Part shown: positions 8,059-64,000 of the stretch, piece by piece
How the letters are laid out: each line of letters starts with the position of its first letter
Numbering within the stretch: position 1 is the stretch's first letter
From: a virus
Lineage: Duplodnaviria > Caudoviricetes
Virus record (IMG/VR): IMGVR_UViG_3300001487_000106
Span: 1-64,000 of that record
Reading direction: 5' to 3' (one strand)
DNA length: 64,000 bases
The notes under the pieces: model-generated
What the model saw: only the letters and a program-made list of their open reading frames with translations
Told to the model about the DNA's origin: nothing
Databases searched by the model: none
Made by a program: the position numbers and the translations under genes

Positions 8059-9924
8059 TTACATTGTCATTACATCATATATAAAATCAAGATTAGACAT
8101 TAAATCATCAACTGATTCTACTTTAATGTCACGTCCTTTTCTATCTTTAGTTTCAACTTCTTCAGCATTACTTTTTACTCTATCTGGAAGATTATCAGCC
8201 CATGTTCTAAGTGTCTCCATATATCTATTTTTCCATTTTGCAAATGCTTCATCAGGAGAGCCATCTTTGGGATTATAGTATATGGGCTCAATATCGAGAT
8301 AATCCTTTCCATCAACATTTTTCCAGAACCAATGTTTGGGAGAATTAGGAAATTTAAAATCACCATCAAACATTATTCTTGCATCAGAATAGAGTTTGTC
8401 GTGATATACTCCATCTCGTTTACCATCTGTTTTTTTACGTAAATGAACATGTCCTGCTGATGAATACTTTGTTTTATATCCTTTTTGATTAAGGATCTCG
8501 ATAACTGGTTTAATTTCAGCATCAATATTAGCAGCTTCGTCGATATCTGATTCAATAACTATAATGTTTTCATCAGGATTCATCTTATAATACTTAAGCT
8601 GATTTTCATACTTTCTAATTAAATCAAAATTATTATCATTACGAGCATTCTCAAGTTTAGCTTCAATTACATCACTTGGATATAATAATTCAAAAGGAGT
8701 TGATTCAACAGTTTCTTTGATATTTGAACCCATCTCAGTATTTTTTTTATCAGTGGCAGTTTCCAATGGTTTTTCATTAGGGTTATTAATGTTTTCTTTC
8801 TTTACATTACCATCAATTTCATTTTCAACTTTTTTAACTAAAGCATCAACTGCAGCTTTATCCTTAGGATTGAGTTCCTTCTTTAAAATTCTGATTTCTT
8901 TTTCTTTTTCAATCAGGTTTCTTTTTAATTCATCAATACGAGCCCTATCAGTCCCTTTTTTCTTTGCAACTTTAAGTCTTGATTTGATGAGTGCTTTTTC
9001 AACAGCGGCTTTCTTAATACTAGCAGAAAGTTCTATGTTGCATTTTACATCTTTAATGAATTTCTTAATTTCAGCCTCTACATAATATGTATAACCATAT
9101 TCAGGATTCATAACATATTCAAGAGTACTTTCAAGTTCAATATCATCAGGAAGATCTATACCATCGAGTTCATCTTTATCAACTTTTTTATCAACGGTAT
9201 TAATATCCTTTATAACATCATTAGGATTACCAAGACCATCAGTTGAACCAGTTTGAGGAAGCATTGCACATATAGAGTTTTCAGTTTTTTCATTGTTTTT
9301 ATTTACTTCAGTAGTTCTAGCAGCAGCTTCTGCTGCACCACTATCATTATTTTCAGGTGGCTTATCAGGATTTATATCTTTTGATACATCGACATTCTCA
9401 AAATTCATAGCCACTTCCTCCATTTCAGATTCGATACAATAGTCATCATATACGTCATCTAATAATGAACTGATAACCGATTCTTTTTGAATTTCAGGAA
9501 CTCTTATAGAAGCATAGTATAATGATCTAGGTCCGAACTCAACCTCACATTTTTTCTTATATTGACGTAATATATCTTTTGTTCTATCTGTTTTAGAAAT
9601 AGCAACAGCTATTTTGTATAATTTATCTACATCTTTAAGTTCCTGTGTTAATTCTTTTATAGTTTCTTTATCCTTGGGATTTTCTCGCTTAATTTTCTTA
9701 AGTTTCATCTCAAGCTTTACTTTTTTCTTTATTGTTTCTTTTACCTCTTGATCTAATGGATATTGAATTTTATCAACAACCTGTTTACCAGCAATCTTAG
9801 CTAAAACAGTCCCCGCTCCTTCCTTTACAAAAACATACGGAGCTTCAGTGACAAATTCTTCAACACCAACTTCTTCTCGTATATCATTAATGATTTTATC
9901 AAAATAATCAATTTGATTTTCCAT
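8059..9924 (-). CDS. Probable internal head protein with C-terminal TYW3-like phage domain
   Basis: Many xxE-S/A motifs and coiled coils; DAEIKPVIEILNQKGYKTKYSSAGH; late-type promoter at 9962-9976. Confidence 0.5.
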   Translation of the reverse strand: MENQIDYFDKIINDIREEVGVEEFVTEAPYVFVKEGAGTVLAKIAGKQVVDKIQYPLDQEVKETIKKKVKLEMKLKKIKRENPKDKETIKELTQELKDVDKLYKIAVAISKTDRTKDILRQYKKKCEVEFGPRSLYYASIRVPEIQKESVISSLLDDVYDDYCIESEMEEVAMNFENVDVSKDINPDKPPENNDSGAAEAAARTTEVNKNNEKTENSICAMLPQTGSTDGLGNPNDVIKDINTVDKKVDKDELDGIDLPDDIELESTLEYVMNPEYGYTYYVEAEIKKFIKDVKCNIELSASIKKAAVEKALIKSRLKVAKKKGTDRARIDELKRNLIEKEKEIRILKKELNPKDKAAVDALVKKVENEIDGNVKKENINNPNEKPLETATDKKNTEMGSNIKETVESTPFELLYPSDVIEAKLENARNDNNFDLIRKYENQLKYYKMNPDENIIVIESDIDEAANIDAEIKPVIEILNQKGYKTKYSSAGHVHLRKKTDGKRDGVYHDKLYSDARIMFDGDFKFPNSPKHWFWKNVDGKDYLDIEPIYYNPKDGSPDEAFAKWKNRYMETLRTWADNLPDRVKSNAEEVETKDRKGRDIKVESVDDLMSNLDFIYDVMTM

Positions 9925-9975
9925 ATTTTTATTTTCATTCCTTTCTATATCAGAATTATTGTTAATATCTTGTTT

Positions 9976-10581
9976 TTATCTGCTAATTTTAAGGAATTCA
10001 TCTATCATACTGTTATATTTTGTTAATAATTCGATAAATAAATTAAAGAACCGTAAAATATATAATGATTTTAATCGGTCATCATCTGTTTTATCCAGAT
10101 AATTACTCACATTAAGTATAAGTTTTTTATTGGATTTAATAAGTTGAATATTTTCATTTTTTTGTTTCATGAGTTCCGTTCTATGCTTACGGATTTCGCT
10201 TATAATATTATTAGAATATTTATCTGATGGAATTTCAGAATATGTAGATACAATTATTCTATTATATTCTTTAATTCTTCCAACTGTTACTTTTAAATGA
10301 TCATTGATTTTATCGTGTTTATCTATAGTATTCATCTTAGATGTATCATATCCAAAATATTTTTTAACATTTGTTTCATTTGCAAATACTTTCATATATT
10401 GAAGCATTTCTTTTCTTATCTCATTAAGATTTTTGATAAAAGATACTATATCATATTTTACATTTTTTTCAATTGTCTGTTTAAGGTTTTCTTCTTGATA
10501 TCTTTGTGCATATAATTCAGCAATTGTTTTACCAGAACTATATATTTCATCTAAATCGGATATACTTAAATCTATCATCAA
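9976..10581 (-). CDS. Hypothetical helical protein
   Basis: ORF with RBS GGATGGTG, directly downstream of 10595..11884. Confidence 0.6.
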   Translation of the reverse strand: MMIDLSISDLDEIYSSGKTIAELYAQRYQEENLKQTIEKNVKYDIVSFIKNLNEIRKEMLQYMKVFANETNVKKYFGYDTSKMNTIDKHDKINDHLKVTVGRIKEYNRIIVSTYSEIPSDKYSNNIISEIRKHRTELMKQKNENIQLIKSNKKLILNVSNYLDKTDDDRLKSLYILRFFNLFIELLTKYNSMIDEFLKISR

Positions 10582-10594
10582 TTATTCACCATCC

Positions 10595-11884
10595 CTACAG
10601 ATATTTTTTTAACCTATTTTTATCACCAACAACGGATGATGATATGTTAAATTTTTTCATAGCTTTTATAATGTTTTGTGCAAGTTCTTCCTCATATTTA
10701 GGTTCTACTTTATTAAAAAATCTTATTGCAGCCATTACATGAGATTTATCATTTAAAGGATACTTACGTAATTCTGGAATACCGAATGTTTTTGTTTTGA
10801 GATTATTCCTTTTTTCTGATGTAAGGGTTGCTTCAGTCATTTCATCATCTGTACAGGCATTAACGAATTCATCGAGTGTCATACCATATTTCGTATTCCT
10901 AACAGTTGATATATAGAGCTCTGGGTACTTTCTTTTTTTATCCCAGCGTTTTTTAACTTCATTTTTAAGGTCATTTAAATTATCATATGGACCATGAATA
11001 CCCTTATTATTTCCCCATGCTGTTTCTAACCAGTAATATTTTTTCTTTTTTACATAATAGGAAAATGAGTGTGTCTCTCCACCCTTTCCACTCGAAGGAT
11101 CATACTCGATTACAAATAATCGCCCTGGATCAAGATGCATCTTTCTTAATGCATGGTATGTGAACTCTGATTGATCATGGCATGATCCTTTTCTAGTTTC
11201 ATATAATTCTTCAGGACTTTTCAGCTTAGTATAATTAGCATAAGATATATTTGATTTCATCCATTCGAATAATGCTTCCGGTGTCTTTATATTATGATAA
11301 ATAAATTTATCAACACCATCTTTGTACATAGATTCTACCACTATCTCATCACTTCCAACATGATTTTTCAAATACCACTTTAATGCTTCTCTATGTTCAT
11401 CTTTGAAAAATTGTAAACATTGCTTAATTGGATAGAATTTACCACTAAGAATAAATGAGTCCCTATCAACTTTTTTTATTTGACCTTTATACATAGATAC
11501 GTATGTTGCAACATATATATCAGTAATAGCACCATCCCAGATATGTTTATCGTCTCTTTCATCAGGTTTATTAATCTGCTTTATTTGAAATCCACTATTT
11601 TCAACGTCTGATATATTTAGTCTAGCTTCTTCTCTACATTCATTCTCTGCCTGTAAAGCATCATTGGAATCTTTTTCTTTTGAACCACCTGGTAAAAAAT
11701 ATTCACCATTAGGTTTTTTCTTAACGAAAACTTCTTTATTACCACGTACCACTATAGTTTCAACACGATTGCGATAAACATGATTATCAAAAGGAAATGT
11801 TATTAGTGCATTCCATGTTTTATTTTTATCATAAAAGCCACCATGCTCTTTAGCAAGCTTTCTACCTTTTTCTAAATTAGTCAT
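10595..11884 (-). CDS. Multidomain protein: NUDIX hydrolase + transglutaminase-like domain + small C-terminal phage domain
   Basis: NUDIX box PGGSKE...ECREEA; papain/TGase triad GSCHDQS...TH...WLE; C-terminal FGIPELRKYPLNDKSHV. Start moved to MTNLEK (RBS GAAGGTG). Confidence 0.75.
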   Translation of the reverse strand: MTNLEKGRKLAKEHGGFYDKNKTWNALITFPFDNHVYRNRVETIVVRGNKEVFVKKKPNGEYFLPGGSKEKDSNDALQAENECREEARLNISDVENSGFQIKQINKPDERDDKHIWDGAITDIYVATYVSMYKGQIKKVDRDSFILSGKFYPIKQCLQFFKDEHREALKWYLKNHVGSDEIVVESMYKDGVDKFIYHNIKTPEALFEWMKSNISYANYTKLKSPEELYETRKGSCHDQSEFTYHALRKMHLDPGRLFVIEYDPSSGKGGETHSFSYYVKKKKYYWLETAWGNNKGIHGPYDNLNDLKNEVKKRWDKKRKYPELYISTVRNTKYGMTLDEFVNACTDDEMTEATLTSEKRNNLKTKTFGIPELRKYPLNDKSHVMAAIRFFNKVEPKYEEELAQNIIKAMKKFNISSSVVGDKNRLKKYL

Positions 11885-12758: not shown

Positions 12759-13235
12759 TCACCTTCCAAATCTTGTATTATATATATAATAGTTCATATC
12801 TGATTCCATTTCTTTCAGATCTTTTAGACTAGGTGTGTATGAACCCTCATCTTTTGCTAAGTCCTCCATTAACATTATGACCTTACGTATTGATTTTAAA
12901 TCTTTTTTACTAATATCATATGTTTGAACAGTTCTTAACAAAATATCTTTAACAGTAATGAAATCATCAGTATATCCATCATCATACAATTCAAGTGTAT
13001 CAATATACTTTCTTTGGATAAAGGTTTCTTTATACCGTACTAGATATAGATCATCAAACTCTATCCGTTTATATGATTTTTTATTTTTCTCTTTATTAAT
13101 AGAGAGCCTCAAATCATCATATTTTTGTAATAGTAGTTCACAGTATTTTTGAACTACTCGCTTTTCACGATGAAAAGCAATAATTTCTTTTTCATTTTCA
13201 ATCACATAGTACATTATAAAACTTTTCCCCTGCAT
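12759..13235 (-). CDS. Hypothetical protein, possibly a distant member of the 16.7-19.1 kb paralog family
   Basis: IIAFHREKRVVQKY loosely resembles LYAYTDNKELAKQF. Confidence 0.6.
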   Translation of the reverse strand: MQGKSFIMYYVIENEKEIIAFHREKRVVQKYCELLLQKYDDLRLSINKEKNKKSYKRIEFDDLYLVRYKETFIQRKYIDTLELYDDGYTDDFITVKDILLRTVQTYDISKKDLKSIRKVIMLMEDLAKDEGSYTPSLKDLKEMESDMNYYIYNTRFGR

Positions 13236-13644
13236 ACTGTATCTCTATAAGGTCTATCTTTTCGACAGACATATGATCTATAAGATACTTACTGGCTTCG
13301 GTCTCTGTTAATCTACCATTATTTGCTACTGGAGATTTACAATAATCAAAACCATTTATTTTGAATTTAATTAATTCCTTATCATTGGATGCATTTTCGA
13401 TAAATTTATCAATAAATGATTCTACTGATTCATCATCAAAAAGTTCATCGCTGATTATTTCGATTTTAATATTTAAAATCTTTTCATCATTTTCAAGATG
13501 AATATATCCTTTTGTGAGTAATTGTTTCCATTGCTCATTGGTTATTTTAAACTCATCAGGTATATATTCATTAACTGATGTAAAGGTATCTAGTTTGGAT
13601 AGTGGCTGTTTAATTGTCAAGTCAATCCTTTTTTTCTTGTTCAT
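13198..13644 (-). CDS. Hypothetical protein, tandem paralog B
   Basis: Shares KQLLTKGYIHLENDEKI and CKSPVANNGRLTETEASKYL with 13656..14093. Confidence 0.75.
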   Translation of the reverse strand: MNKKKRIDLTIKQPLSKLDTFTSVNEYIPDEFKITNEQWKQLLTKGYIHLENDEKILNIKIEIISDELFDDESVESFIDKFIENASNDKELIKFKINGFDYCKSPVANNGRLTETEASKYLIDHMSVEKIDLIEIQYAGEKFYNVLCD

Positions 13645-13655
13645 TTCATCGCTTC

Positions 13656-14093
13656 CTATTCATTTGGATAACTAAGTTCAAAAGATATTACTTCTTGAGT
13701 CGACATAAAATCCATAAGATACTTACTGGCTTCAGTCTCTGTTAATCTACCATTATTTGCTACTGGAGATTTACAGTAATCGTAGCCATTTATTTTGAAC
13801 TCGTCTAACTCTTTATCATCTGATGCGTTATTGATAAAATTATCAATAAGCGCATCGATGCTTTCATCTCTCATAATATTATCATCCAAAAATTTTAGAT
13901 GTATATCTATGATCTTCTCATCATTTTCAAGATGAATATACCCTTTTGTGAGTAATTGTTTCTCCTGTTCGTTGGTTAATTCAAACTCAGCCAAATCATC
14001 GTATGACTTAATATCAAAAGTATTTATTTTTGATATCGGATGTTTGATATCAATCAATACTTTATCTTTTTCGGTATCGTTCATTGTTAACAC
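13656..14093 (-). CDS. Hypothetical protein, tandem paralog A
   Basis: Near-duplicate of 13198..13644; RBS AAAGGAG. Confidence 0.75.
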   Translation of the reverse strand: MLTMNDTEKDKVLIDIKHPISKINTFDIKSYDDLAEFELTNEQEKQLLTKGYIHLENDEKIIDIHLKFLDDNIMRDESIDALIDNFINNASDDKELDEFKINGYDYCKSPVANNGRLTETEASKYLMDFMSTQEVISFELSYPNE

Positions 14094-14097
14094 TCCT

Positions 14098-14532
14098 TTA
14101 TTTTATATTTAATGAACTCTGATAAATCTTCTGTAACTTCGAGAGTGTTTCAGGTTTAATATGAGTTTTAATAGGGTCGAATGATAAAATAGCAAGAATT
14201 AACGAAGCAATCAATCTTGCTATAATAATTACAATAGGACATATGTCCTTGAAAACATTTTCTATCCTATCAAGAAGATTGGTTCCTTCTATTCTCTGAA
14301 TCACTTCCTTTCGAGCTTCTATTCGTTCAAGCGAATTGTCAAAATAGTAAGGATCTTTCTTTATCTTCTTTCTCGCCTTCTTTCTAGCTTTCTCTTCAGC
14401 AAGATAAAGTTCCAACTGAAGCTCTTCAATTTCTGACATAATAGCATCGTATGTCATATTCAAAGTCTTATCAACCTCATTTATGATTGATATTGGCTTC
14501 TTATTTTCCTTCTTTTTCTTAGCTTTTGACAT
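14098..14532 (-). CDS. Hypothetical protein with basic coiled coil and hydrophobic helix
   Basis: RBS AGGAGG; PIVIIIARLIASLILAILSF; early-type motif at 14594-14603. Confidence 0.7.
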   Translation of the reverse strand: MSKAKKKKENKKPISIINEVDKTLNMTYDAIMSEIEELQLELYLAEEKARKKARKKIKKDPYYFDNSLERIEARKEVIQRIEGTNLLDRIENVFKDICPIVIIIARLIASLILAILSFDPIKTHIKPETLSKLQKIYQSSLNIK

Positions 14533-14637
14533 TTTAAAAACCTCCTAATTTAAATATATAAAATATATATCTGAAATATATTTTATCTTAAATATGATGT
14601 ATAAATTGAAGTTGAAAATTAAATTTTATTTTTTTAT

Positions 14638-14650
14638 AACATTCTATTAA
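14638..14650 (+). promoter_or_regulatory. Late-type phage promoter AACA-N6-TAA with no downstream ORF
   Basis: aaca ttctat taa immediately before the GGGGG/polypurine element. Confidence 0.6.
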
Positions 14651-14826
14651 GGGGGAACCCCTACCAGCTGGGGGAGCGAAAAGCGAGCCCACAAATGGGG
14701 GATAAAAAAAAATAAAAAAAAGAGAAAGAAAAAGGAAGAAAGAGAAAATAAAAAAGAAAAGAAAAAAAAAGAAAGAGAGAAAGATAAAAGAAAATAAATA
14801 AGATAAGAAAGAGAAAGGAAACCCCT
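14649..14826 (+). other. G-cluster plus ~120-nt polypurine tract (candidate non-coding transcript or origin)
   Basis: Three G5 runs (14651, 14670, 14697), then an almost pure A/G run 14702-14821, closed by CCCCT. Confidence 0.5.
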
Positions 14827-14954
14827 GAATAATTTAAAAAATAATGATTCGTATATGAACGATGATTTAATTTATCAGTCATCTTTCATAACATTTAAAT
14901 AAAAAATGAATTCACATTCTAGTCCTAGTCTCCTTTCAGAATATTATCTAAATC

Positions 14955-14995
14955 AATTGACTATTACGTATTTTATGCGTAATAGTCAATTTTTT
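14955..14995 (+). terminator. Intrinsic terminator
   Basis: aattgactattacgta...tgcgtaatagtcaatt followed by a T-run. Confidence 0.7.
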
Positions 14996-15065
14996 CTACA
15001 TATATTAATATAAAAATATATTAAAAAATGGGTCTATAGATTTTTAATTCTATAGACCCATTTTT

Positions 15066-16322
15066 TTAATTATTATCATCTAATACACGTCGTTCAAGTT
15101 CTTTCGATGAGGATAACAATACATCATAAATACTCTTTGATGTTGATTTGATTGAATTAATTATATAAAGTATCTCATTACTTAATGCTGAATTCATGTT
15201 ATAAATATGGCTATTTCTAATTGCAGTTTCATACTTCAATAAAGTTGAAGAAATGTCATTTAGAGAAATCTTCATACTAAATTTAATTGACGTATTTAAT
15301 GGAATAAATTTATATCTTGTAAGATTAGCCTCAGGTTTAGAAGATACTTCATCTTTCATTTTCTTTATATCTCCAAGTTTAGATGATAATCTCATACTAT
15401 ATTTATCTAATCCTTCCGGTATTATCATTTTAGCATCTTCTCTAAATAAAAGTTTCATATCCTGATGGTCTATGAAAAATACGTTAGGAAGAGCTACAAA
15501 CATCTCTAGGAACGCATAAAAACTGCAATTTATAACAAAATATAGATTTATTGATTTGTACATTAAACCACGTGCATCATCTATCACATCTAAAAATACA
15601 CTGGAAGTGTGTGATATATCTGTCTGTATATTATCTGTTTTATCACCAAAAAACGATATTGAACCTGTAGGAGATACAACATCTGATAATGATACAGAAG
15701 TTTTTTTATCATCGATAAAACTATAGAAATTATTATGAATGTACGAATCAACAACAGTATCAATTTTATTTACATATGATTGATAATAATTATAAAAATT
15801 ATTAACAAAGTTTGTAATTAATGAATTCTCAAGAACTTTATAATCTAGAATTTCAGGAGAAAAATCGCTGTTTGATTGATATCCAAATGTTTTCATAAAA
15901 AATACATCAGGCATCATACTAAAAATAGAGAATAACTGAGAACCAGATAACGACAAAATAATTCTCTTAGTTATACAGCCAGCTGTTAGGAAGTATTGAC
16001 CAATTGAATATTTTATATCAGCATCATGATTAATGCTGTTAGATAACGTTAAGATGTTATCTATAACTTGTTTATATTTATCGCCTAATGCTTCATTGTC
16101 ATAAAATGTCGCTACTGGAATAATTTCAGAGTTTGTAAAGACTTTAATGATAAACTCTTCAAATAAAGTCAGGTCATCAATGAAAAAAGTTATTGTGACA
16201 TGAGATAGTAATCTATTAATATTATCATATATTTTTTGATCATAATCTGGATTGTGCTTACCTATTGCAATAGCTTCATATAATTTGTCAATATTTGACA
16301 TTTCTACATTCTGTACAATCAT
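15066..16322 (-). CDS. Tandem degenerate ThyX-fold protein (catalytic motif absent)
   Basis: Two ThyX-like repeats: SHVTITFFIDD/YFLTAGCITKRIILSLS and SINLYFVINCS/RYKFIPLNTSIKFSMKIS...SNEI; no RHR-S-SxR motif. Confidence 0.4.
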   Translation of the reverse strand: MIVQNVEMSNIDKLYEAIAIGKHNPDYDQKIYDNINRLLSHVTITFFIDDLTLFEEFIIKVFTNSEIIPVATFYDNEALGDKYKQVIDNILTLSNSINHDADIKYSIGQYFLTAGCITKRIILSLSGSQLFSIFSMMPDVFFMKTFGYQSNSDFSPEILDYKVLENSLITNFVNNFYNYYQSYVNKIDTVVDSYIHNNFYSFIDDKKTSVSLSDVVSPTGSISFFGDKTDNIQTDISHTSSVFLDVIDDARGLMYKSINLYFVINCSFYAFLEMFVALPNVFFIDHQDMKLLFREDAKMIIPEGLDKYSMRLSSKLGDIKKMKDEVSSKPEANLTRYKFIPLNTSIKFSMKISLNDISSTLLKYETAIRNSHIYNMNSALSNEILYIINSIKSTSKSIYDVLLSSSKELERRVLDDNN

Positions 16323-16480
16323 TATTGATCTTCCTTTTCTTTAATTTTGTCACATGTTATTGTTCCATCTTCATATATAAGATGAGGACATTTATTACAT
16401 TTTTTAATAGAATCATCAGATTCTCCGAAATATGATTCAATTTCTGAATCATCATAGTTATTAAGACATTCATTATTCAT
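16322..16480 (-). CDS. Small Cys-rich protein (52 aa)
   Basis: MNNECL...KKCNKCPHLIYEDGTITCDK; RBS AAGGAGG; stop overlaps the next ATG (TAATG). Confidence 0.65.
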   Translation of the reverse strand: MNNECLNNYDDSEIESYFGESDDSIKKCNKCPHLIYEDGTITCDKIKEKEDQ

Positions 16481-16582
16481 AAAAAATCCTCCTTGTCAAT
16501 AGTTATATTAAAGTATATTGAATGAATTGTGAATTACTTATATATCATTTTCATATAATTTAGGTAAAGGATATGAAAATGT

Positions 16583-16789
16583 ATGAATAAATTTGATAAA
16601 GATATAAAAAATATAAAAGAATCGGTTGATGATCTTTTATTGCTTTCTGATTTTTTGATTTACAATTCATTAGATAAAAGTCCTAAGAAAATTAAAAAGA
16701 AATTGGAAAAGTTAAAGAAATATCTTGATGAAGAGGATTTCGAAAAATGTATGAATGAGGAGTGGTTATCAAAATATGAAAACTACTAA
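16583..16789 (+). CDS. Small hypothetical protein
   Basis: RBS AAAGGA; first gene after the early-type motif at 16539-16548. Confidence 0.65.
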   Translation: MNKFDKDIKNIKESVDDLLLLSDFLIYNSLDKSPKKIKKKLEKLKKYLDEEDFEKCMNEEWLSKYENY

Positions 16790-17321
16790 TAAATATAAGT
16801 ACTACTTATATTATCTATATGATGAAAATATAGATGATAATGTAGAATTATATGCATATACTGATAATAAAGAATTAGCAAAGCAATTCGAAAAAGAACG
16901 AGATATGAATTTATTTCATAAAAAGGTGATGAAATTTGACAGAAGTACTGTGAACAATTTAGTCAGATATAATCAGCCGAATAATCTGATGCTCATGAAC
17001 GGTTATACTAAGGATATAGATAATCCAGGTATACCTGTTCCTTTTTCATTAGTTGTCACGGAAGCTGAAGAACTGAGTTTAATTTCATCATACGATTCGT
17101 TTATCACATATGAAATATTTTCGATGGCACGTGTAAATCCATTTTGTTTTAACAAGAGAATTTTTAATGCTTTGAAGTATATTGATTATGTATATAGCTA
17201 TATGTATTGCTATGAACCTGAAAAAATAGAAGAATTATTTCCGAATGCACAATATGATTATGAATTTGATATATTTGGTGGGTTTATAAAGGCATTTGGA
17301 AAATATCTCAGAAAGGATTAA
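16776..17321 (+). CDS. Paralog family member 1
   Basis: LYAYTDNKELAKQFEKERDMN; RBS GAGGAG. Confidence 0.75.
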   Translation: MKTTNKYKYYLYYLYDENIDDNVELYAYTDNKELAKQFEKERDMNLFHKKVMKFDRSTVNNLVRYNQPNNLMLMNGYTKDIDNPGIPVPFSLVVTEAEELSLISSYDSFITYEIFSMARVNPFCFNKRIFNALKYIDYVYSYMYCYEPEKIEELFPNAQYDYEFDIFGGFIKAFGKYLRKD

Positions 17322-17322
17322 T

Positions 17323-17970
17323 ATGATAATTTATTGTATTTATGCCGCAGTGCCAAAAAAGGTTTTTATTGACTCAGTTTCTGGTGTTATACCAAATACT
17401 AAAGATTGGTCATATGATGATGAAACTGAAAAGTACACTGGGTTATATGCTTGGACAAAGAAAAAAAGTCTATTTATTGATTTCATGAATATTCGTTCAG
17501 GATGTAAATATTATATTCCGTTGAAAAAAGATTTTTCTAAAGATGAATATATGAAATTTAAGGAAGTATATTCAGAGTATAAACTTGGGTATTATGAATA
17601 TGATCGTGGTGATACATCTAAAGTATCATCAACTATATTTCCTTCAACACTATTTGAATTTTTACTTACTGATAGTGCTGAAGGATATGGTGAAATGTAC
17701 TATAATTATATGCCTGAAATAATGGTTGATTATTATCCATTTAATCAAGCATTGATTGATGCCCTTGATGCAATATCTTATACAACTGAATATGATCTTA
17801 TGGTTGGCGGTGATCCAGAATGTTTTACTGATGATGAGATAACTGAACGATCTGAATTTGCTGAATATAATAAATCTTATGGATTTACAGTATTTGGACG
17901 TAGATATTTTGATATTTGCGCTGATAAATTACAAATGTTAATTCAGTATATAAAATATATGATATATTGA
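17323..17970 (+). CDS. Paralog family member 2
   Basis: LYAWTKKKSLFIDFMNIR; RBS GAAAGGA. Confidence 0.75.
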   Translation: MIIYCIYAAVPKKVFIDSVSGVIPNTKDWSYDDETEKYTGLYAWTKKKSLFIDFMNIRSGCKYYIPLKKDFSKDEYMKFKEVYSEYKLGYYEYDRGDTSKVSSTIFPSTLFEFLLTDSAEGYGEMYYNYMPEIMVDYYPFNQALIDALDAISYTTEYDLMVGGDPECFTDDEITERSEFAEYNKSYGFTVFGRRYFDICADKLQMLIQYIKYMIY

Positions 17971-17981
17971 GAGGAAAACTA

Positions 17982-18611
17982 ATGAAAGTATACATGTTTT
18001 ATTTAGTTCATGAATTTCTTACAGAGACTTATTTTCCAGGTATCAGTAATGATAACGTTAAAAGAAATAATGACACATTTTATGCATTGTATGGATTCAC
18101 TAATGATAAATCTATTAGAAACAAATTCATCAATACTCGCAATATGAATATATTCTATTATAAGACGGAAAATATGAGTAAAGATGAATATGAATCATTT
18201 TCTGAAAAATACGATGATTATGTTATAAAATTCAGAGGGTATAAAACTAAGTTTATTAAAAATGACAAAATAGTCACTGATATCATATTAATTCTTAGTA
18301 CTGGAAAAGAATTCAATAAGGTATATTTTGATGGTATATCTTCATTACATCAAATATTTGATGAAGTCCACAAGAATTTATCATTAATCTCTCCAGATAT
18401 ATTTAATGATACAATATCTAATATATTAAAAAGAATATTTAATTATTATGATTTTATAGACTGGGTAAGACAAATGGATTCAATGCCCTTTTATTCATTC
18501 GAAATAAACTTATTTGCATTATATTTTCATGAATTTGAAAATACGTATAATATAGAAAGGATGTGCGATGCATGCATTTATGGCGATACATTAAAAAACC
18601 TACTGATGTAG
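17982..18611 (+). CDS. Paralog family member 3
   Basis: LYGFTNDKSIRNKFINTRNMN; RBS GAGAGGA. Confidence 0.75.
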   Translation: MKVYMFYLVHEFLTETYFPGISNDNVKRNNDTFYALYGFTNDKSIRNKFINTRNMNIFYYKTENMSKDEYESFSEKYDDYVIKFRGYKTKFIKNDKIVTDIILILSTGKEFNKVYFDGISSLHQIFDEVHKNLSLISPDIFNDTISNILKRIFNYYDFIDWVRQMDSMPFYSFEINLFALYFHEFENTYNIERMCDACIYGDTLKNLLM

Positions 18612-60519: not shown

Positions 60520-63510
60520 ATGCCGCAATCTATACAGATAGTACCTAAGTACTCATATCCGTACGTTGAAACTGTAATCAATGATAATACAAAGGTTACT
60601 GAGACAAATACTGATACTAGGATTGATCCTTCAGTAACTTATGCATTTCCGTTCGTTTCATCTAAGGGTGTGGACAATGTATTTGTAAGAAAGACGTCGT
60701 ACGATAGTTTTGTATCGACATATGGCACTTCTAATTATAAGAAATATGGTCAGCCTCTGATGATGCCTCTGGCACTTCTGAGAAAGCCTAATACTTATGT
60801 ATGGGGTATGCGTGTAATGCCTGAGAATGCTACATATTCTAATGCAGTTATTTCTCTGTATTATAAGGCTGACAAAACTAATGATACCGTTAAGGCTAGC
60901 GAAAGACGCTTCCGTATGAAGTTCATAGTTAAGTTCCTTGAAGGTATCAGTGATATTGAAACATTCAATAAAAAGTATGTTGAACTTGATGGCGCAGAGT
61001 TAGTTAATGATAAGTATGTTGATGACGAGGGCTACACTCAGGCTCCTGTTATGGGTATCCGTGTTGCTGGTAGAGGCAAGTACGGCGATAACTACTCTGT
61101 TCATATTGACACAAATAAGTCATATGAAAAAGAATACGGTATCAAAATGTATGATTTTGTCATCATGAATAATGAGGGTGGTCTTAACAAGATTGCAACC
61201 TATACTGGTTCAATTGTTTCATCGTCTAAGTATGATGCATCAACTCTTGTTAATGATATCCTTGAAAATAGCAACATTGGCGATGTTCCGGTTTATATTT
61301 CCATGAACGAAGCTGGTGTTGAAGATGTATACGATGCATATGTATCATTCCTTACTGAACTCTATCCTTCACTTGAGGCAGAGTATGATGAGACATTTGC
61401 TAAGTATGCTGAAATTTTTGCAAACGTATCTATTAGCAGAGAATCACTCACTAACATGGTTAATGGCAATGAGAGAGTTCCTACCGGTATTATTGCAAAA
61501 GATGCAGACGGTAATGATGTGAAGCTCTCTGATGCTGTTTCAGAACTTCAGAAAATAATGTCGATGATAAAGGATTCTAATCCTGATAATATTATTGACA
61601 TTGACGAGTTTGACCCGTTCTTTGCAAAGAAAGTTGCAAGCACTGAATTACTTCCTTGTATCATGTATCCTTCAGAGGTTCCGAAGGGTGGTATTCCTGC
61701 CGGTGCAAATCCTGCAGATTATACTACATCAAAGCTTATGCCTTCATTCGGCTCTGTAAAGGGTGTTGGAGTAAACTATGGTACAAATGGTTACTTCGAT
61801 AATCCCAGAATTCTTGATACTGATGGATTCATTGTAACTTCAAAGACTGTTGCAGTTGATGCTGAGGGTGAAACAGTATTCCCCAAGGAAGTTGAAGTTC
61901 CCGCAACAATCGTTAAATTCGTAGATTCAACTGATAATAGCTATTATATCAATAGTGGTACAGCTACTATTCCCGTTTATACACATTACAATGCTGATGG
62001 CACAACTGTTCAAGTTGATGTTGTTACATTCGCAGCGGCTACATCCACTACCGAAGGTGCTCTTGAAGTTGTAGCTAATGATTATACTGGTAAAACAGTA
62101 TATGCCGTAGCAACTTCTGGTGATGCTGGCGCTCTTGAAGTTGTAGCAGATGATGCTGATCCTTTTGATTCTGAAACACAGATTAAGATTAGCGATGTTA
62201 CAGGCATCACTGTAAATGTTGGTGATTATGTAACCAAGACAGAGATTCCTTTTGACCCTGAAACACAGATTAAGATTGGTGAAGTTACTGGCATCTCTGT
62301 TGTTGTTGGTGATTATGTAACCAAGACTGTGACAAAGGAAGACGAAGTTGTTAACACAGATGAAGTTACAGCTAAGATTGAAGCTGGTGAACTTACTCGT
62401 GTTGAAGATGCTGATCCTGAAAAGACTGTTACCGTAACAAAGTATTATCGTGAAGATGGTGTTACAGAAGGTGTTGAACCTATAAATACTAATGCTTCCA
62501 AGTATTACTATGAAGATGGTAAGGAATGCACTACTGATGTTACACAGTGGACAGTAGCACAGGAAATTGATGAATGCTATAAGAATGCATTTAACGGTAC
62601 TTTTGATAGAAAGGTTCTTTCTTCAAGAAGAATTCCTGTTACTGCATGGTTTGATGCAAACTATAGTTATGAGGTTAAGCAGGTTCTTGCAGAACTTGTA
62701 GTTGTAAGAAATGATGCTCCTCTGTATCTTGACTGTGGTATTGAAATGGAGTCATTCTCTAAGTCTAATATCAATAGTCTCATTCGTGATTATGCTATAT
62801 TCAGTACTATAGGTTCTGATAAGACTGGTATTGAGAATCATTGCCTGATCTCGAAGAATACACAGCACTTCATGGTAAGAGAAACTCCTTCTCAGAAGAG
62901 AGTTAAGGTTTCCATCACTTATTTCCTTGCTCAGCAGTTTGCTGATCATGTTATTGACTATGGAACTCATATTCCTATGGTTAAAGCAAAGGCACAGCTC
63001 ACTGGTCATATTAGAGATACTCTCGAGCCCTCTATTGAAGACTATGAGGCTGATCTCAAGGAAGAGCTGTATCAGAATAACTTTAACTATTTCGAGACTC
63101 TTGATGATAATGTATTCCAGAGAGCTACTCAGACAACAGCACAAACTGATCTGACTGATCTTTCTGAAGAGAATAATGTATTTACTCTTTATGCAATCAA
63201 GAGAATAATAGAAACCGATATTCATAGTAGACTCTATGACTTTGCTGATGCAAGTGAAAGAGAGCACTTCTCTGCATTTGAAAAAGCTAAGTTCTCCGAT
63301 TGGACTGGTTCCAAGGTTCTTTCAATTGATATAGAGTTTAGAGTTAATAAGTGGGAGTTTGATCGTTCTATTTTACACTGCTATGTTGCAGTTGTATTTA
63401 GAGGTCTTCAGAAGCGTGCTATTCTCGAAATTGATATCAATAAGAGAACATATGAAGATAGCACTAACACTGATGACAATGGTTCTACCACTGGAACTAT
63501 TATGCTGTAA
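60520..63510 (+). CDS. Tail sheath protein with inserted decoration modules
   Basis: PYVETVIND, SSKGVDN, YGQP, MRVMPENA, GRGKYGD, FDANY, LSEENNV, V.FRG; late motif at 60439-60451. Confidence 0.85.
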   Translation: MPQSIQIVPKYSYPYVETVINDNTKVTETNTDTRIDPSVTYAFPFVSSKGVDNVFVRKTSYDSFVSTYGTSNYKKYGQPLMMPLALLRKPNTYVWGMRVMPENATYSNAVISLYYKADKTNDTVKASERRFRMKFIVKFLEGISDIETFNKKYVELDGAELVNDKYVDDEGYTQAPVMGIRVAGRGKYGDNYSVHIDTNKSYEKEYGIKMYDFVIMNNEGGLNKIATYTGSIVSSSKYDASTLVNDILENSNIGDVPVYISMNEAGVEDVYDAYVSFLTELYPSLEAEYDETFAKYAEIFANVSISRESLTNMVNGNERVPTGIIAKDADGNDVKLSDAVSELQKIMSMIKDSNPDNIIDIDEFDPFFAKKVASTELLPCIMYPSEVPKGGIPAGANPADYTTSKLMPSFGSVKGVGVNYGTNGYFDNPRILDTDGFIVTSKTVAVDAEGETVFPKEVEVPATIVKFVDSTDNSYYINSGTATIPVYTHYNADGTTVQVDVVTFAAATSTTEGALEVVANDYTGKTVYAVATSGDAGALEVVADDADPFDSETQIKISDVTGITVNVGDYVTKTEIPFDPETQIKIGEVTGISVVVGDYVTKTVTKEDEVVNTDEVTAKIEAGELTRVEDADPEKTVTVTKYYREDGVTEGVEPINTNASKYYYEDGKECTTDVTQWTVAQEIDECYKNAFNGTFDRKVLSSRRIPVTAWFDANYSYEVKQVLAELVVVRNDAPLYLDCGIEMESFSKSNINSLIRDYAIFSTIGSDKTGIENHCLISKNTQHFMVRETPSQKRVKVSITYFLAQQFADHVIDYGTHIPMVKAKAQLTGHIRDTLEPSIEDYEADLKEELYQNNFNYFETLDDNVFQRATQTTAQTDLTDLSEENNVFTLYAIKRIIETDIHSRLYDFADASEREHFSAFEKAKFSDWTGSKVLSIDIEFRVNKWEFDRSILHCYVAVVFRGLQKRAILEIDINKRTYEDSTNTDDNGSTTGTIML

Positions 63511-63530
63511 GAAGGATGGTGAAATGAAAT

Positions 63531-64000
63531 ATGGCACAATATGCACAGAAAGATACCGCTAAAAGTAATAGTATTACTCACAACAATTCTATTCAGGCTG
63601 GCGGTAGCTCAATGAAAAACTTTCAGGATGCATCACTGACTGATTATGCACTGTTTTTAGGCGGTACTAATGTCACTCATGATGTGCTTGAAAAGTATGA
63701 TCCTCTTAAGACTGGTTATGGTCGTTTATTTATGGTTAGAACACCTTTATTTGTCAGAGAGCTCATGCCTCCTCAGATGGGTATATTTAAGCATATACTT
63801 GAATATGGTAATACAGCAGTTTCTGGTATAGGTGACGTTTCTGTTAACTTTGAACCTCTCAAAGGTGGTTATGTAGGTAAACAGTTTGAAATACCTATGA
63901 CAGCTGAAGATAGTACCAATGAATTTACCGTTAAGGTTTACGAATTTTCAGGTTCACCTATTCGTGAAGTTCTTCATACATGGATTAATGGTACAACTGA
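63531..64000 (+). CDS. Tail tube protein (runs off the window)
   Basis: Not in the ORF track; MAQYAQK...YDPLKTGYGRLFMVRTP...VYEFSGSP; directly follows the sheath. Confidence 0.7.
   Translation, partial: MAQYAQKDTAKSNSITHNNSIQAGGSSMKNFQDASLTDYALFLGGTNVTHDVLEKYDPLKTGYGRLFMVRTPLFVRELMPPQMGIFKHILEYGNTAVSGIGDVSVNFEPLKGGYVGKQFEIPMTAEDSTNEFTVKVYEFSGSPIREVLHTWINGTT

Follow-up and report, generated by a model that had tools for sequence, protein, structure and literature searches.

A conserved, promoter-fed purine-rich unit in rumen jumbo phages as a candidate transcription-primed replication origin

At several sites of replication priming, a transcript made by an RNA polymerase becomes the primer; the primary origin of T7, RNA II of ColE1, mitochondrial LSP-CSBII and the retroviral polypurine tract are cases in point. 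Here either G runs (ColE1 and CSBII) or a purine-only RNA (the polypurine tract) lead to a hybrid that is persistent or resistant to RNase H, and purine RNA on a pyrimidine template is the most stable kind of hybrid. Purine-rich RNAs serve other ends as well: CsrB/RsmZ, the Hfq class II small RNAs and the STAB-SD/SP82 stabiliser are short, purine-rich non-coding RNAs or leaders that carry a terminator and act by binding protein or the 30S subunit, not through extended base pairing. We know of no account of replication initiation in jumbo phages that, like the phiKZ and AR9 groups, encode a multisubunit RNA polymerase of their own. In this work we describe a unit found at positions 14,638 to 14,826 (plus strand) of the first 64 kb, hereafter the window, of the virus record IMGVR_UViG_3300001487_000106. 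An earlier inspection of the letters of the window (the sequence-only reading) had proposed that this locus is either a transcription-primed replication origin or a structural RNA.

According to passages of the account by Kreuzer and Brister (2010; PMC3016281), the minimal origin of phage T4 consists of a promoter and an A+T-rich unwinding element of no specific sequence, T4 origins lie near points of transcription divergence, and Dda acts at origins. For phage AR9, passages of Lavysh et al. (2017; PMC5312081) give the late promoter as AACA-(6N)-TA/G, the last base of which is the start of transcription; this promoter was present at 94 of 118 non-early start sites, and late promoters are described as also driving antisense or non-coding transcription. 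Our search of the literature on jumbo-phage origins and R-loops, which was not aimed specifically at the origins of AR9 or PBS1, returned general R-loop papers only and no mapped origin.

The source record comprises 93,192 bp (CheckV completeness 39%) and belongs to an uncultured phage whose host environment is the cattle rumen; it encodes a 1422-aa RNA polymerase beta subunit of the phiKZ/AR9 type. The unit opens with a promoter whose consensus, AACA-N6-TA, is identical to that of the AR9 late units in the passages cited (PMC5312081). A perfect AACA-ttctat-TAA at 14638-14650, runs of five G, a tract of A and G and a closing CCCCT had all been reported from the letters, and each was found where it had been placed (Table 1). 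The later two G runs lie at 14670-14674 and 14697-14701, and these three runs are the only ones of at least five G in the whole record. Similarly, 100-nt windows with at least 85% purine occur only within 14662-14844 (the mean for the record is 0.52, with a standard deviation of 0.08 and a maximum of 0.95), and no pyrimidine-rich counterpart of the tract was found in the record. Both the GC skew (+0.46/+0.48) and the AT skew (+0.53/+0.54) of 14600-14899 are above those of every other 200-nt window of 13000-16500. The original description of the locus thus stands.

Coding potential on the strand of the unit appears to be lacking. The tail contains no ATG, GTG or TTG, has TAA in all three frames, and holds each of its seven T residues in an ATAA context. 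No plus-strand open reading frame (ORF) of at least 30 aa was found over the tract, none was found within 1.9 kb downstream of the unit, and no ORF is conserved in the family described below; an ORF on the minus strand is a by-product of the pyrimidine strand. These findings agree with the original statement that the locus holds no credible ORF. The proposal of a structural RNA, on the other hand, was not borne out. Most of the predicted RNA cannot fold: the tail is devoid of C, contains 6% U and can form no hairpins. Of 200 shuffled sequences, 12 fold at least as well as the 5' head (z -1.8), and Rfam returned no match on the unit at E up to 10 for the window and up to 1 for five related loci. 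In the predicted fold the closing CCCC is not paired with the third G run, and it reads CCTT or CCC in the copies of G001, a close relative. (Note that a 15-nt inverted repeat between the T-rich box and the start of the tail, 93% complementary with arms 64 nt apart, is of low complexity and was given no weight.)

The promoter motif has 86 matches in the record, 30 of which fall within the 11% of the DNA that is intergenic. For 23 of these 30, an ORF with a ribosome-binding site of the GAAAGGAG type begins 19-132 nt downstream; the promoter at 14638 is one of the seven that have no ORF close downstream. Because the AR9 rule puts the start on the last base of the promoter, the RNA is predicted to begin at A14649. 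Upstream of the promoter is a T-rich box that is common to the window, both copies in G001 and both copies in G003 (see below), is partial in G002, and is absent upstream of the other listed late promoters of the record. Downstream, a hairpin with a T-run follows 0-170 nt past the tail in all six loci that were read, and is scored as a terminator on the strand of the unit in two of them, namely at 14955-14991 of the window, where it is the first terminator-like site for a transcript reading through from the unit, and at one of the two loci of G003 (type 2). The hairpins of G001 (type 2) and G002 are scored on the opposite strand, with T4 following on the strand of the unit; that of G005 is a 24-bp perfect stem without G-C pairs, and that of the other G003 locus (type 1) is a 7-bp stem followed by T8.

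Public RNA data bear on the divergent side of the locus. Six runs were found, of which four contained 11% of the words of the query, and the assembled contigs of four runs were compared with the window. Contigs from three bovine-gut metatranscriptome runs cover 14400 to 14564 or 14575, which corresponds to the mRNA of the 144-aa gene. None falls on the unit, of which positions 14696-14811 were masked as repeat; this outcome speaks neither for nor against a transcript of the unit. (The 434-nt contig from X17 is identical to that from X18, and the two runs are perhaps one data set.) Because contigs of the divergent gene extend to 14564-14575, some minus-strand promoter has to be sited between about 14575 and 14640. 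The sequence-only reading had placed an early promoter in this interval, at 14594-14603; we could not confirm it as a motif, as the AR9 early consensus has 80 matches in the window compared with 65.8 +/- 9.1 in shuffled sequence.

The unit belongs to a family with at least eight copies in six records of rumen jumbo phages, and is present in every related record examined. These records are G000 (that of the window; one copy), G001 (250,395 bp, complete; two copies, at 221,511-221,719 on the minus strand and 63,356-63,540 on the plus strand), G002 (one copy, at the syntenic site and with a shorter purine stretch), G003 (254,451 bp, complete; two copies), G004 (one copy) and G005 (one copy; an IMG/VR record that is the 227-kb metagenome contig L077). 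All members of the clade are uncultured. Their relatedness to the window ranges widely, the protein of the neighbouring 418-aa gene being 94% identical in G001, 49% in G002 and 21% in G005. The copies share a common build, in which the promoter is followed by a leader of 0-27 nt, the motif G5-6/A1-2/C4 and a tail of 78-139 nt that is rich in A, poor in C and has an AT skew of +0.33 to +0.86 on the RNA-like strand. Motif counts, like the GC ranks given below, were taken over five records (G000, G001, G002, G003 and G005; 804,757 bp): G5-A(1-2)-C4 occurs seven times, in each case inside a copy, and its reversed control does not occur. The distant relatives have a single G run. The G/C hallmark is kept in records with a GC content of only 26-32%. 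Syntenic equivalents in relatives, which had been proposed as a check on the locus, therefore exist, and an assembly artefact is excluded; to judge from this conservation, the unit is a real conserved non-coding element.

Two types of locus can be told apart. Copies of type 1 are divergent from the 144-aa gene and adjoin genes of 418 and 52 aa, and copies of type 2 start 20-29 nt past the stop codon of a gene for 131 aa. Each of the complete genomes has exactly two copies, one of each type, so the duplication is old. Within a genome the two copies are 0.86-0.89 identical, tails included, whereas identity between same-type copies of G001 and G003 is 0.56-0.61, no more than the background for sequence of such composition. 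The two copies of a genome thus evolve in concert, with gene conversion keeping them alike. The homogenised segment starts about 26 nt upstream of AACA, within the T-rich box, and stops with the tail or the 3' box; the downstream hairpins lie outside it and are locus-specific.

Identity between the window and G001 varies along the locus, from 0.97-0.98 over the promoter and G-rich head to 0.86-0.96 in the flanking genes and 0.885, with 23 gap columns, in the tail; between clades, where the flanking proteins are only 21-50% identical, tails cannot be aligned. What is constrained in the tail is thus its composition and not its sequence. Taken together, we consider it very probable that the locus is a functional, non-coding, promoter-fed unit.

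What the unit does is less certain. We tentatively favor, at somewhat short of an even chance, the idea that it is a transcription-opened and possibly RNA-primed origin that acts in cis, in the manner of T4 oriF and oriG. Circumstantial support for an origin comes from the two copies per genome near switches of gene direction, from the lowest-GC DNA, from neighbors with replication functions and from a tail kept in composition only.

With respect to the first of these, both complete genomes have their copies near prominent minima of the strand walk and of the GC skew. In order of prominence, the strand walk of G001 has its global minimum at 219.8 kb (0.41) and further minima at 62.5 kb (0.25), 17.0 kb and 156.4 kb; one copy is 1791 bp from the global minimum and the other 969 bp from that at 62.5 kb. 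In G003, where minima were found at 99.9 kb (0.34), 206.6 kb (0.30, global), 73.05 kb (0.19) and three lesser positions, the copies are 1826 and 1183 bp from those at 206.6 and 73.05 kb. The chance that two random gaps of at least 100 bp would be as near to two different minima of these lists is 0.0008-0.006 for G001 and 0.0014-0.014 for G003; note that these two genomes are syntenic, so that the probabilities are not independent trials. The copy of G005 lies within a switch itself, and the switch of the window is at about 16.5 kb.

With respect to the second, the 100-bp window with the lowest GC content (a plain count of G+C) is in or against the unit in all five records (Table 1). The position upstream of the promoter also ranks second from the bottom in G005, as it does among 60-bp windows in G003, and in the clade of the window the absolute minimum is upstream of the promoter, not downstream. 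The tails themselves have a GC content of 18% (window), 16-18% (G001) and 8-9% (G003), compared with 30-31% for the genomes. The gaps that bear the unit account for only 2-15% of the intergenic DNA, the mean GC content of which is 21-26%.

With respect to the third, the copy of type 2 is followed in G001 by a Dda/RecD-like helicase (AAA_30, UvrD_C_2 and PIF1, all above cut-off) and in G003 by an NAD-dependent ligase; near it are also a weak RecA-like ATPase and a DHH/DHHA1 protein, both below cut-off. G001 encodes an RNase HI (95,024-95,455, plus strand; Pfam RNase_H, 138 bits). Four families, a set that is not exhaustive, were searched, namely the primase-type DNAG_N, Toprim_2 and Prim-Pol and also 5_3_exonuc_N, and none has a match in G001 or G003.

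If the unit is an origin, the non-virion RNA polymerase would start at A14649, bordering the weakest duplex, which is flanked by two divergent starts. The G runs, and after them an unfoldable purine-only RNA, would remain paired to the pyrimidine template strand, and transcription would end within 0-170 nt. The hybrid, trimmed by RNase H, would prime the phage DNA polymerase, and a helicase would load onto the displaced strand. Each of these steps (start site, hybrid, processing and priming) is inferred. In its fullest form, to which we give slightly less credence, this idea would make the units the origins of a clade with no recognisable primase: a late-class promoter at the weakest duplex would be fired by the multisubunit RNA polymerase that the phage encodes, the G-run-anchored, unfoldable purine RNA would be the primer, and two such sites per 250-kb genome, which gene conversion would keep identical, would impose their direction on the long gene blocks.

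A number of observations weigh against an origin. First, once gene orientation is removed, the skew at third codon positions has no significant trend (P 0.22, 0.065, 0.44 and 0.53) and its extremes are away from the copies; because no significant trend is left, the skew minima reflect gene direction only. The whole-genome skew that had been suggested as a check therefore did not provide a replication signal; what stands of the original proposal of an origin is that the unit is promoter-fed, non-coding and conserved, with circumstantial support. Second, two of the four prominent divergence points in G001 and four of the six in G003 have no copy, and 55-62% of random gaps are within 2 kb of some divergent switch. 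Third, the low GC content is suggestive and not specific to origins, because the lowest-GC windows of AR9 are ordinary gene-upstream regions; moreover, the type-2 copy of G001 is outside the eight lowest-GC windows of its genome, and the gaps that bear the unit rank high by length (2 of 87; 4 and 11 of 237; 2 and 5 of 260; 2 of 150; 2 of 34). (The AR9 windows, in KU878088, are 83,241-83,340, with 7 G+C, between the genes for the uracil-glycosylase inhibitor and the non-virion RNA polymerase beta subunit, and 167,191-167,290, with 3 G+C, upstream of the tape-measure gene; both have the look of an ordinary promoter and leader.) Fourth, the tail is purine-only in the clade of the window and G001, and A/T-rich in distant relatives, with a purine content of 0.63-0.71; C4 after G5 would favor an RNA hairpin that competes with hybrid formation; and the promoter is of the late class. 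Fifth, the hairpin with a T-run after the tail at every locus read fits a discrete RNA gene. Finally, G003 has no RNase HI match, and AR9 has no equivalent of the unit: GGGG-N(1-5)-CCCC occurs there just once, as an ordinary terminator at 117,123, and its 70-nt windows of at least 85% purine are confined to 10,318-10,594 on the minus strand, inside the tail-fibre gene g012 (9182-11137).

The alternative that fares best is a gene for a trans-acting small RNA, which we regard as possible and place slightly below the origin. Late in infection the unit would then yield an A-rich RNA of about 190-350 nt, capped by a hairpin and otherwise unstructured, that serves as decoy or sponge for a protein with affinity for single-stranded A-rich or purine RNA; the distal face of Hfq, ribosomal protein S1 and a host RNase are suggested targets, and the two gene copies would provide dosage. 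Consistent with such a gene, the unit has its own promoter, no ORF and, at six of six loci, a downstream hairpin with a T-run (scored on its strand at two of the six). A 5' G/C hairpin is the usual protection from 5' exonucleases in Bacillota. Moreover, a tail that can form no internal structure and is kept in composition only would suit protein binding without sequence specificity. However, no binding motif stands out above composition in the purine tails. Runs of A-R-N triplets are not above shuffled sequence in five of seven tails, the purine tails included (P 0.65-0.69), and are above it in the two tails of G003 (P 0.038 and 0.002), composition alone already yielding runs of 8-10 triplets. 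As regards a sponge for CsrA/RsmA, GGA occurs just twice in the 120-nt tail of the window and not at all in the tails of G003; as regards a stabiliser of the STAB-SD kind, the tail has no GGAG, no such core is kept in relatives and no ORF follows. Furthermore, the downstream hairpins lie outside the homogenised unit and differ between loci, and no assembled RNA contig falls on the unit, with the low-complexity stretch 14696-14811 masked in that comparison. An RNA that acts in trans also leaves unexplained the nearness to strand switches and the lowest-GC DNA upstream of the promoter.

We think it unlikely that the unit is some other cis-acting DNA signal, such as a pac site, a recombination site or a module boundary or insulator, with the G/C palindrome as a protein site, the A tracts as DNA that bends or opens readily, and the promoter in an incidental or merely activating role. 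The GGGG(G)-A-CCCC near-palindrome keeps its G-then-C order in eight of eight copies, without the drift that a pure stem might undergo, the copies are at module borders, and rearrangement breakpoints abut both loci. Nevertheless, the A-rich strand is the RNA-like strand downstream of the promoter in all eight copies, which a DNA signal would not need. In addition, A tracts are phased with a period near 10.5 in only one of seven tails and share no periodicity, mirror arms of the kind expected for H-DNA or a triplex are no longer than in shuffled tails (P 0.38, 0.52, 0.13 and 0.90), and no iterons were found at the unit. Two pac sites per genome would be unusual.

Less likely still is a largely neutral A/G microsatellite that grew by slippage behind an orphan late promoter and was copied to a second site. 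Change in the tail does consist mainly of indels, as the 23 gap columns against a 94%-related phage indicate, the A runs are long, and tail length varies from 78 to 139 nt. Against this, the unit persists at two syntenic loci despite the divergence of the flanking proteins, its promoter and head are the best kept part of the locus, exceeding the neighboring genes, its G/C hallmark survives in A+T-rich genomes, and its two copies per genome are homogenised. Finally, a small hydrophobic protein encoded on the minus strand is very improbable: a 73-aa ORF does exist at 14661-14882 and would encode a product in which Phe, Leu and Ser are frequent, but all three minus-strand frames are open across the tract because a pyrimidine-only strand has no stop codons, the frame has no start codon in either copy of G001, tail lengths differ by 18 and 38 nt, the latter no multiple of 3, and the ORF has no match in PHROGs.

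Table 1. Positions of the unit, of features around it and of the lowest-GC 100-bp windows in the five records. G000 is the record of the window.
Record	Feature	Position	Strand	Remarks
G000	144-aa divergent partner gene	14098..14532	-	Adjoins every type-1 copy
G000	Lowest-GC 100 bp of the window	14546..14645	.	10 G+C; tied first in the 93-kb record; divergent intergenic DNA between the 144-aa gene and the promoter, just upstream of the latter
G000	T-rich upstream box (AAATTAAATTTTATTTTT..TAT)	14616..14637	+	Homology of copies within a genome starts here
G000	AR9-type late (non-virion RNA polymerase) promoter, AACA-N6-TA	14638..14649	+	Exact; 14638-14650 reads AACATTCTATTAA
G000	GGGGGAACCCC, G/C hairpin or clamp of 4-5 bp	14651..14661	+	Hallmark of the family; from motif count and fold
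G000	Extra G-rich head with two more G5 runs and a small stem-loop	14662..14701	+	Clade of window and G001 only; 53/54 identical to G001
G000	C-free purine tail, 120 nt (A91 G22 T7 C0)	14702..14821	+	Composition kept; sequence and length not
G000	3' box CCCCTGAATAATTTAAAAAAT, opening with CCCCT (14822-14826)	14822..14843	+	Homology of copies within a genome stops here; 17/21 identical to G001
G000	Second late promoter (AACATTTAAATA), short body with TCTCCTTTCA, then plus-strand hairpin with T-run (14955-14991)	14890..14997	+	Kept in G001 and G002 only
G000	Two-way terminator-like 18-bp hairpin flanked by A6/T6	15023..15066	.	Scores on both strands; ends the convergent 418-aa gene and closes the non-coding gap
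G001	Lowest-GC 100 bp	221,689-221,788		10 G+C; first; just upstream of the type-1 promoter
G002	Lowest-GC 100 bp	15,180-15,279		12 G+C; tied first; upstream of the promoter
G003	Lowest-GC 100 bp	tails of both copies		7 and 8 G+C (next 11); first and second
G005	Lowest-GC 100 bp	tail and upstream flank		4 and 4 G+C (next 6); first and second; both sides of the unit

Several further features of the locus were noted. The second late promoter downstream of the unit in the window is part of an arrangement that is absent from G003 and G005. Its TCTCCTTTCA box is the complement of CTGAAAGGAG, the usual ribosome-binding site of the phage, and is predicted to pair with part of the purine tail in a transcript that reads through from the upstream unit. 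The protein of the divergent 144-aa gene has a lysine-rich, basic N-terminus, a middle that looks coiled-coil-like by eye and a hydrophobic helix at its C-terminus; it belongs to no Pfam or PHROG family and has at least 150 relatives in the protein database, many of them on contigs of 200-270 kb.

The surroundings of the copies differ in arrangement from genome to genome. The two copies are mutually inverted in G001 and direct in G003, and the block of genes from the helicase to the DHH protein, which follows the type-2 copy in G001, is found in inverted orientation beyond the strand switch in G003. The pair of 52-aa and 418-aa genes is inverted in G005, and the breakpoints that adjoin the two loci were seen at L141/G005 and between G001 and G003. 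The window also has tandem paralogues, with two genes of 145-148 aa side by side at 13198-14093 (minus strand) and, across the strand switch, three genes of 188-224 aa that form one family at 16755-18611 (plus strand); another member of the latter family is near the type-2 copy in G001 and G003.

Searches of wider collections added few copies. Neither blastn nor tblastn found a match in the INPHARED phage collection, and PHROGs had none for the flanking genes. A pattern scan of viral contigs returned 23 stretches, of which two were genuine copies and the other 21 unrelated, mostly GC-rich DNA; three of the 42 stretches from a second such scan were genuine (L013, L017 and L043), the remainder being mostly ordinary GGGGGGAACCCC terminators. 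A further pattern scan of viral contigs gave at least 118 stretches, and the size of the family is therefore a lower bound. Scanning metagenomes with the family of the 418-aa protein yielded one added locus, and scanning viral contigs with that of the 144-aa protein yielded nothing beyond four contigs already known. In genome contigs the protein scan was empty, and none of the 76 stretches from the pattern scan was genuine. One site met in these scans, L066 (IMGVR_UViG_3300027763_000052, minus strand near 1317), is in an unrelated 75-kb viral contig with a GC content of 0.36 at the locus; there TAACAATCTATTA is followed directly by GGGGGAACCCCC and then by a GC-rich, apparently structured stretch, and the site may be an analogous promoter and 5' hairpin of another phage.

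The unit is a concrete, sequence-defined candidate origin for jumbo phages with their own multisubunit RNA polymerases. Whichever role it has, it would be an element of no catalogued family whose function resides in base composition rather than in sequence or fold, and searches based on motifs or covariation miss elements defined in this way. The two plausible roles, a primer or origin in cis and a decoy RNA in trans, are separable by simple experiments.

Among known systems, the unit is like CsrB/RsmZ, the Hfq class II RNAs and STAB-SD/SP82 in being purine-rich and non-coding and in having a terminator-like end; unlike CsrB/RsmZ and STAB-SD, it has no repeated GGA or GGAG and no downstream gene that needs stabilising. 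With the T7 origin, ColE1, CSBII and the polypurine tract it shares no sequence or structural homology, and its G runs precede an A-rich tail. It differs from the T4 origins in that its promoter is of the late class and belongs to a multisubunit phage RNA polymerase, whereas that of T4 is a MotA-dependent middle promoter; in that a G5-A-C4 hairpin stands between promoter and tail and a T-run hairpin after the tail; and in the strong strand asymmetry of the tail, which would give a purine-only RNA in the clade of the window. Nevertheless, as far as the passages on T4 go, the unit resembles oriF (uvsY) and oriG (gene 34) in several respects: a phage-specific promoter precedes a stretch of about 100 bp that is rich in A+T and not fixed in sequence, there are several such sites per genome near switches of transcription direction and strand composition, and a gene for a Dda-type helicase, joined in G001 by one for RNase H, is close at hand.

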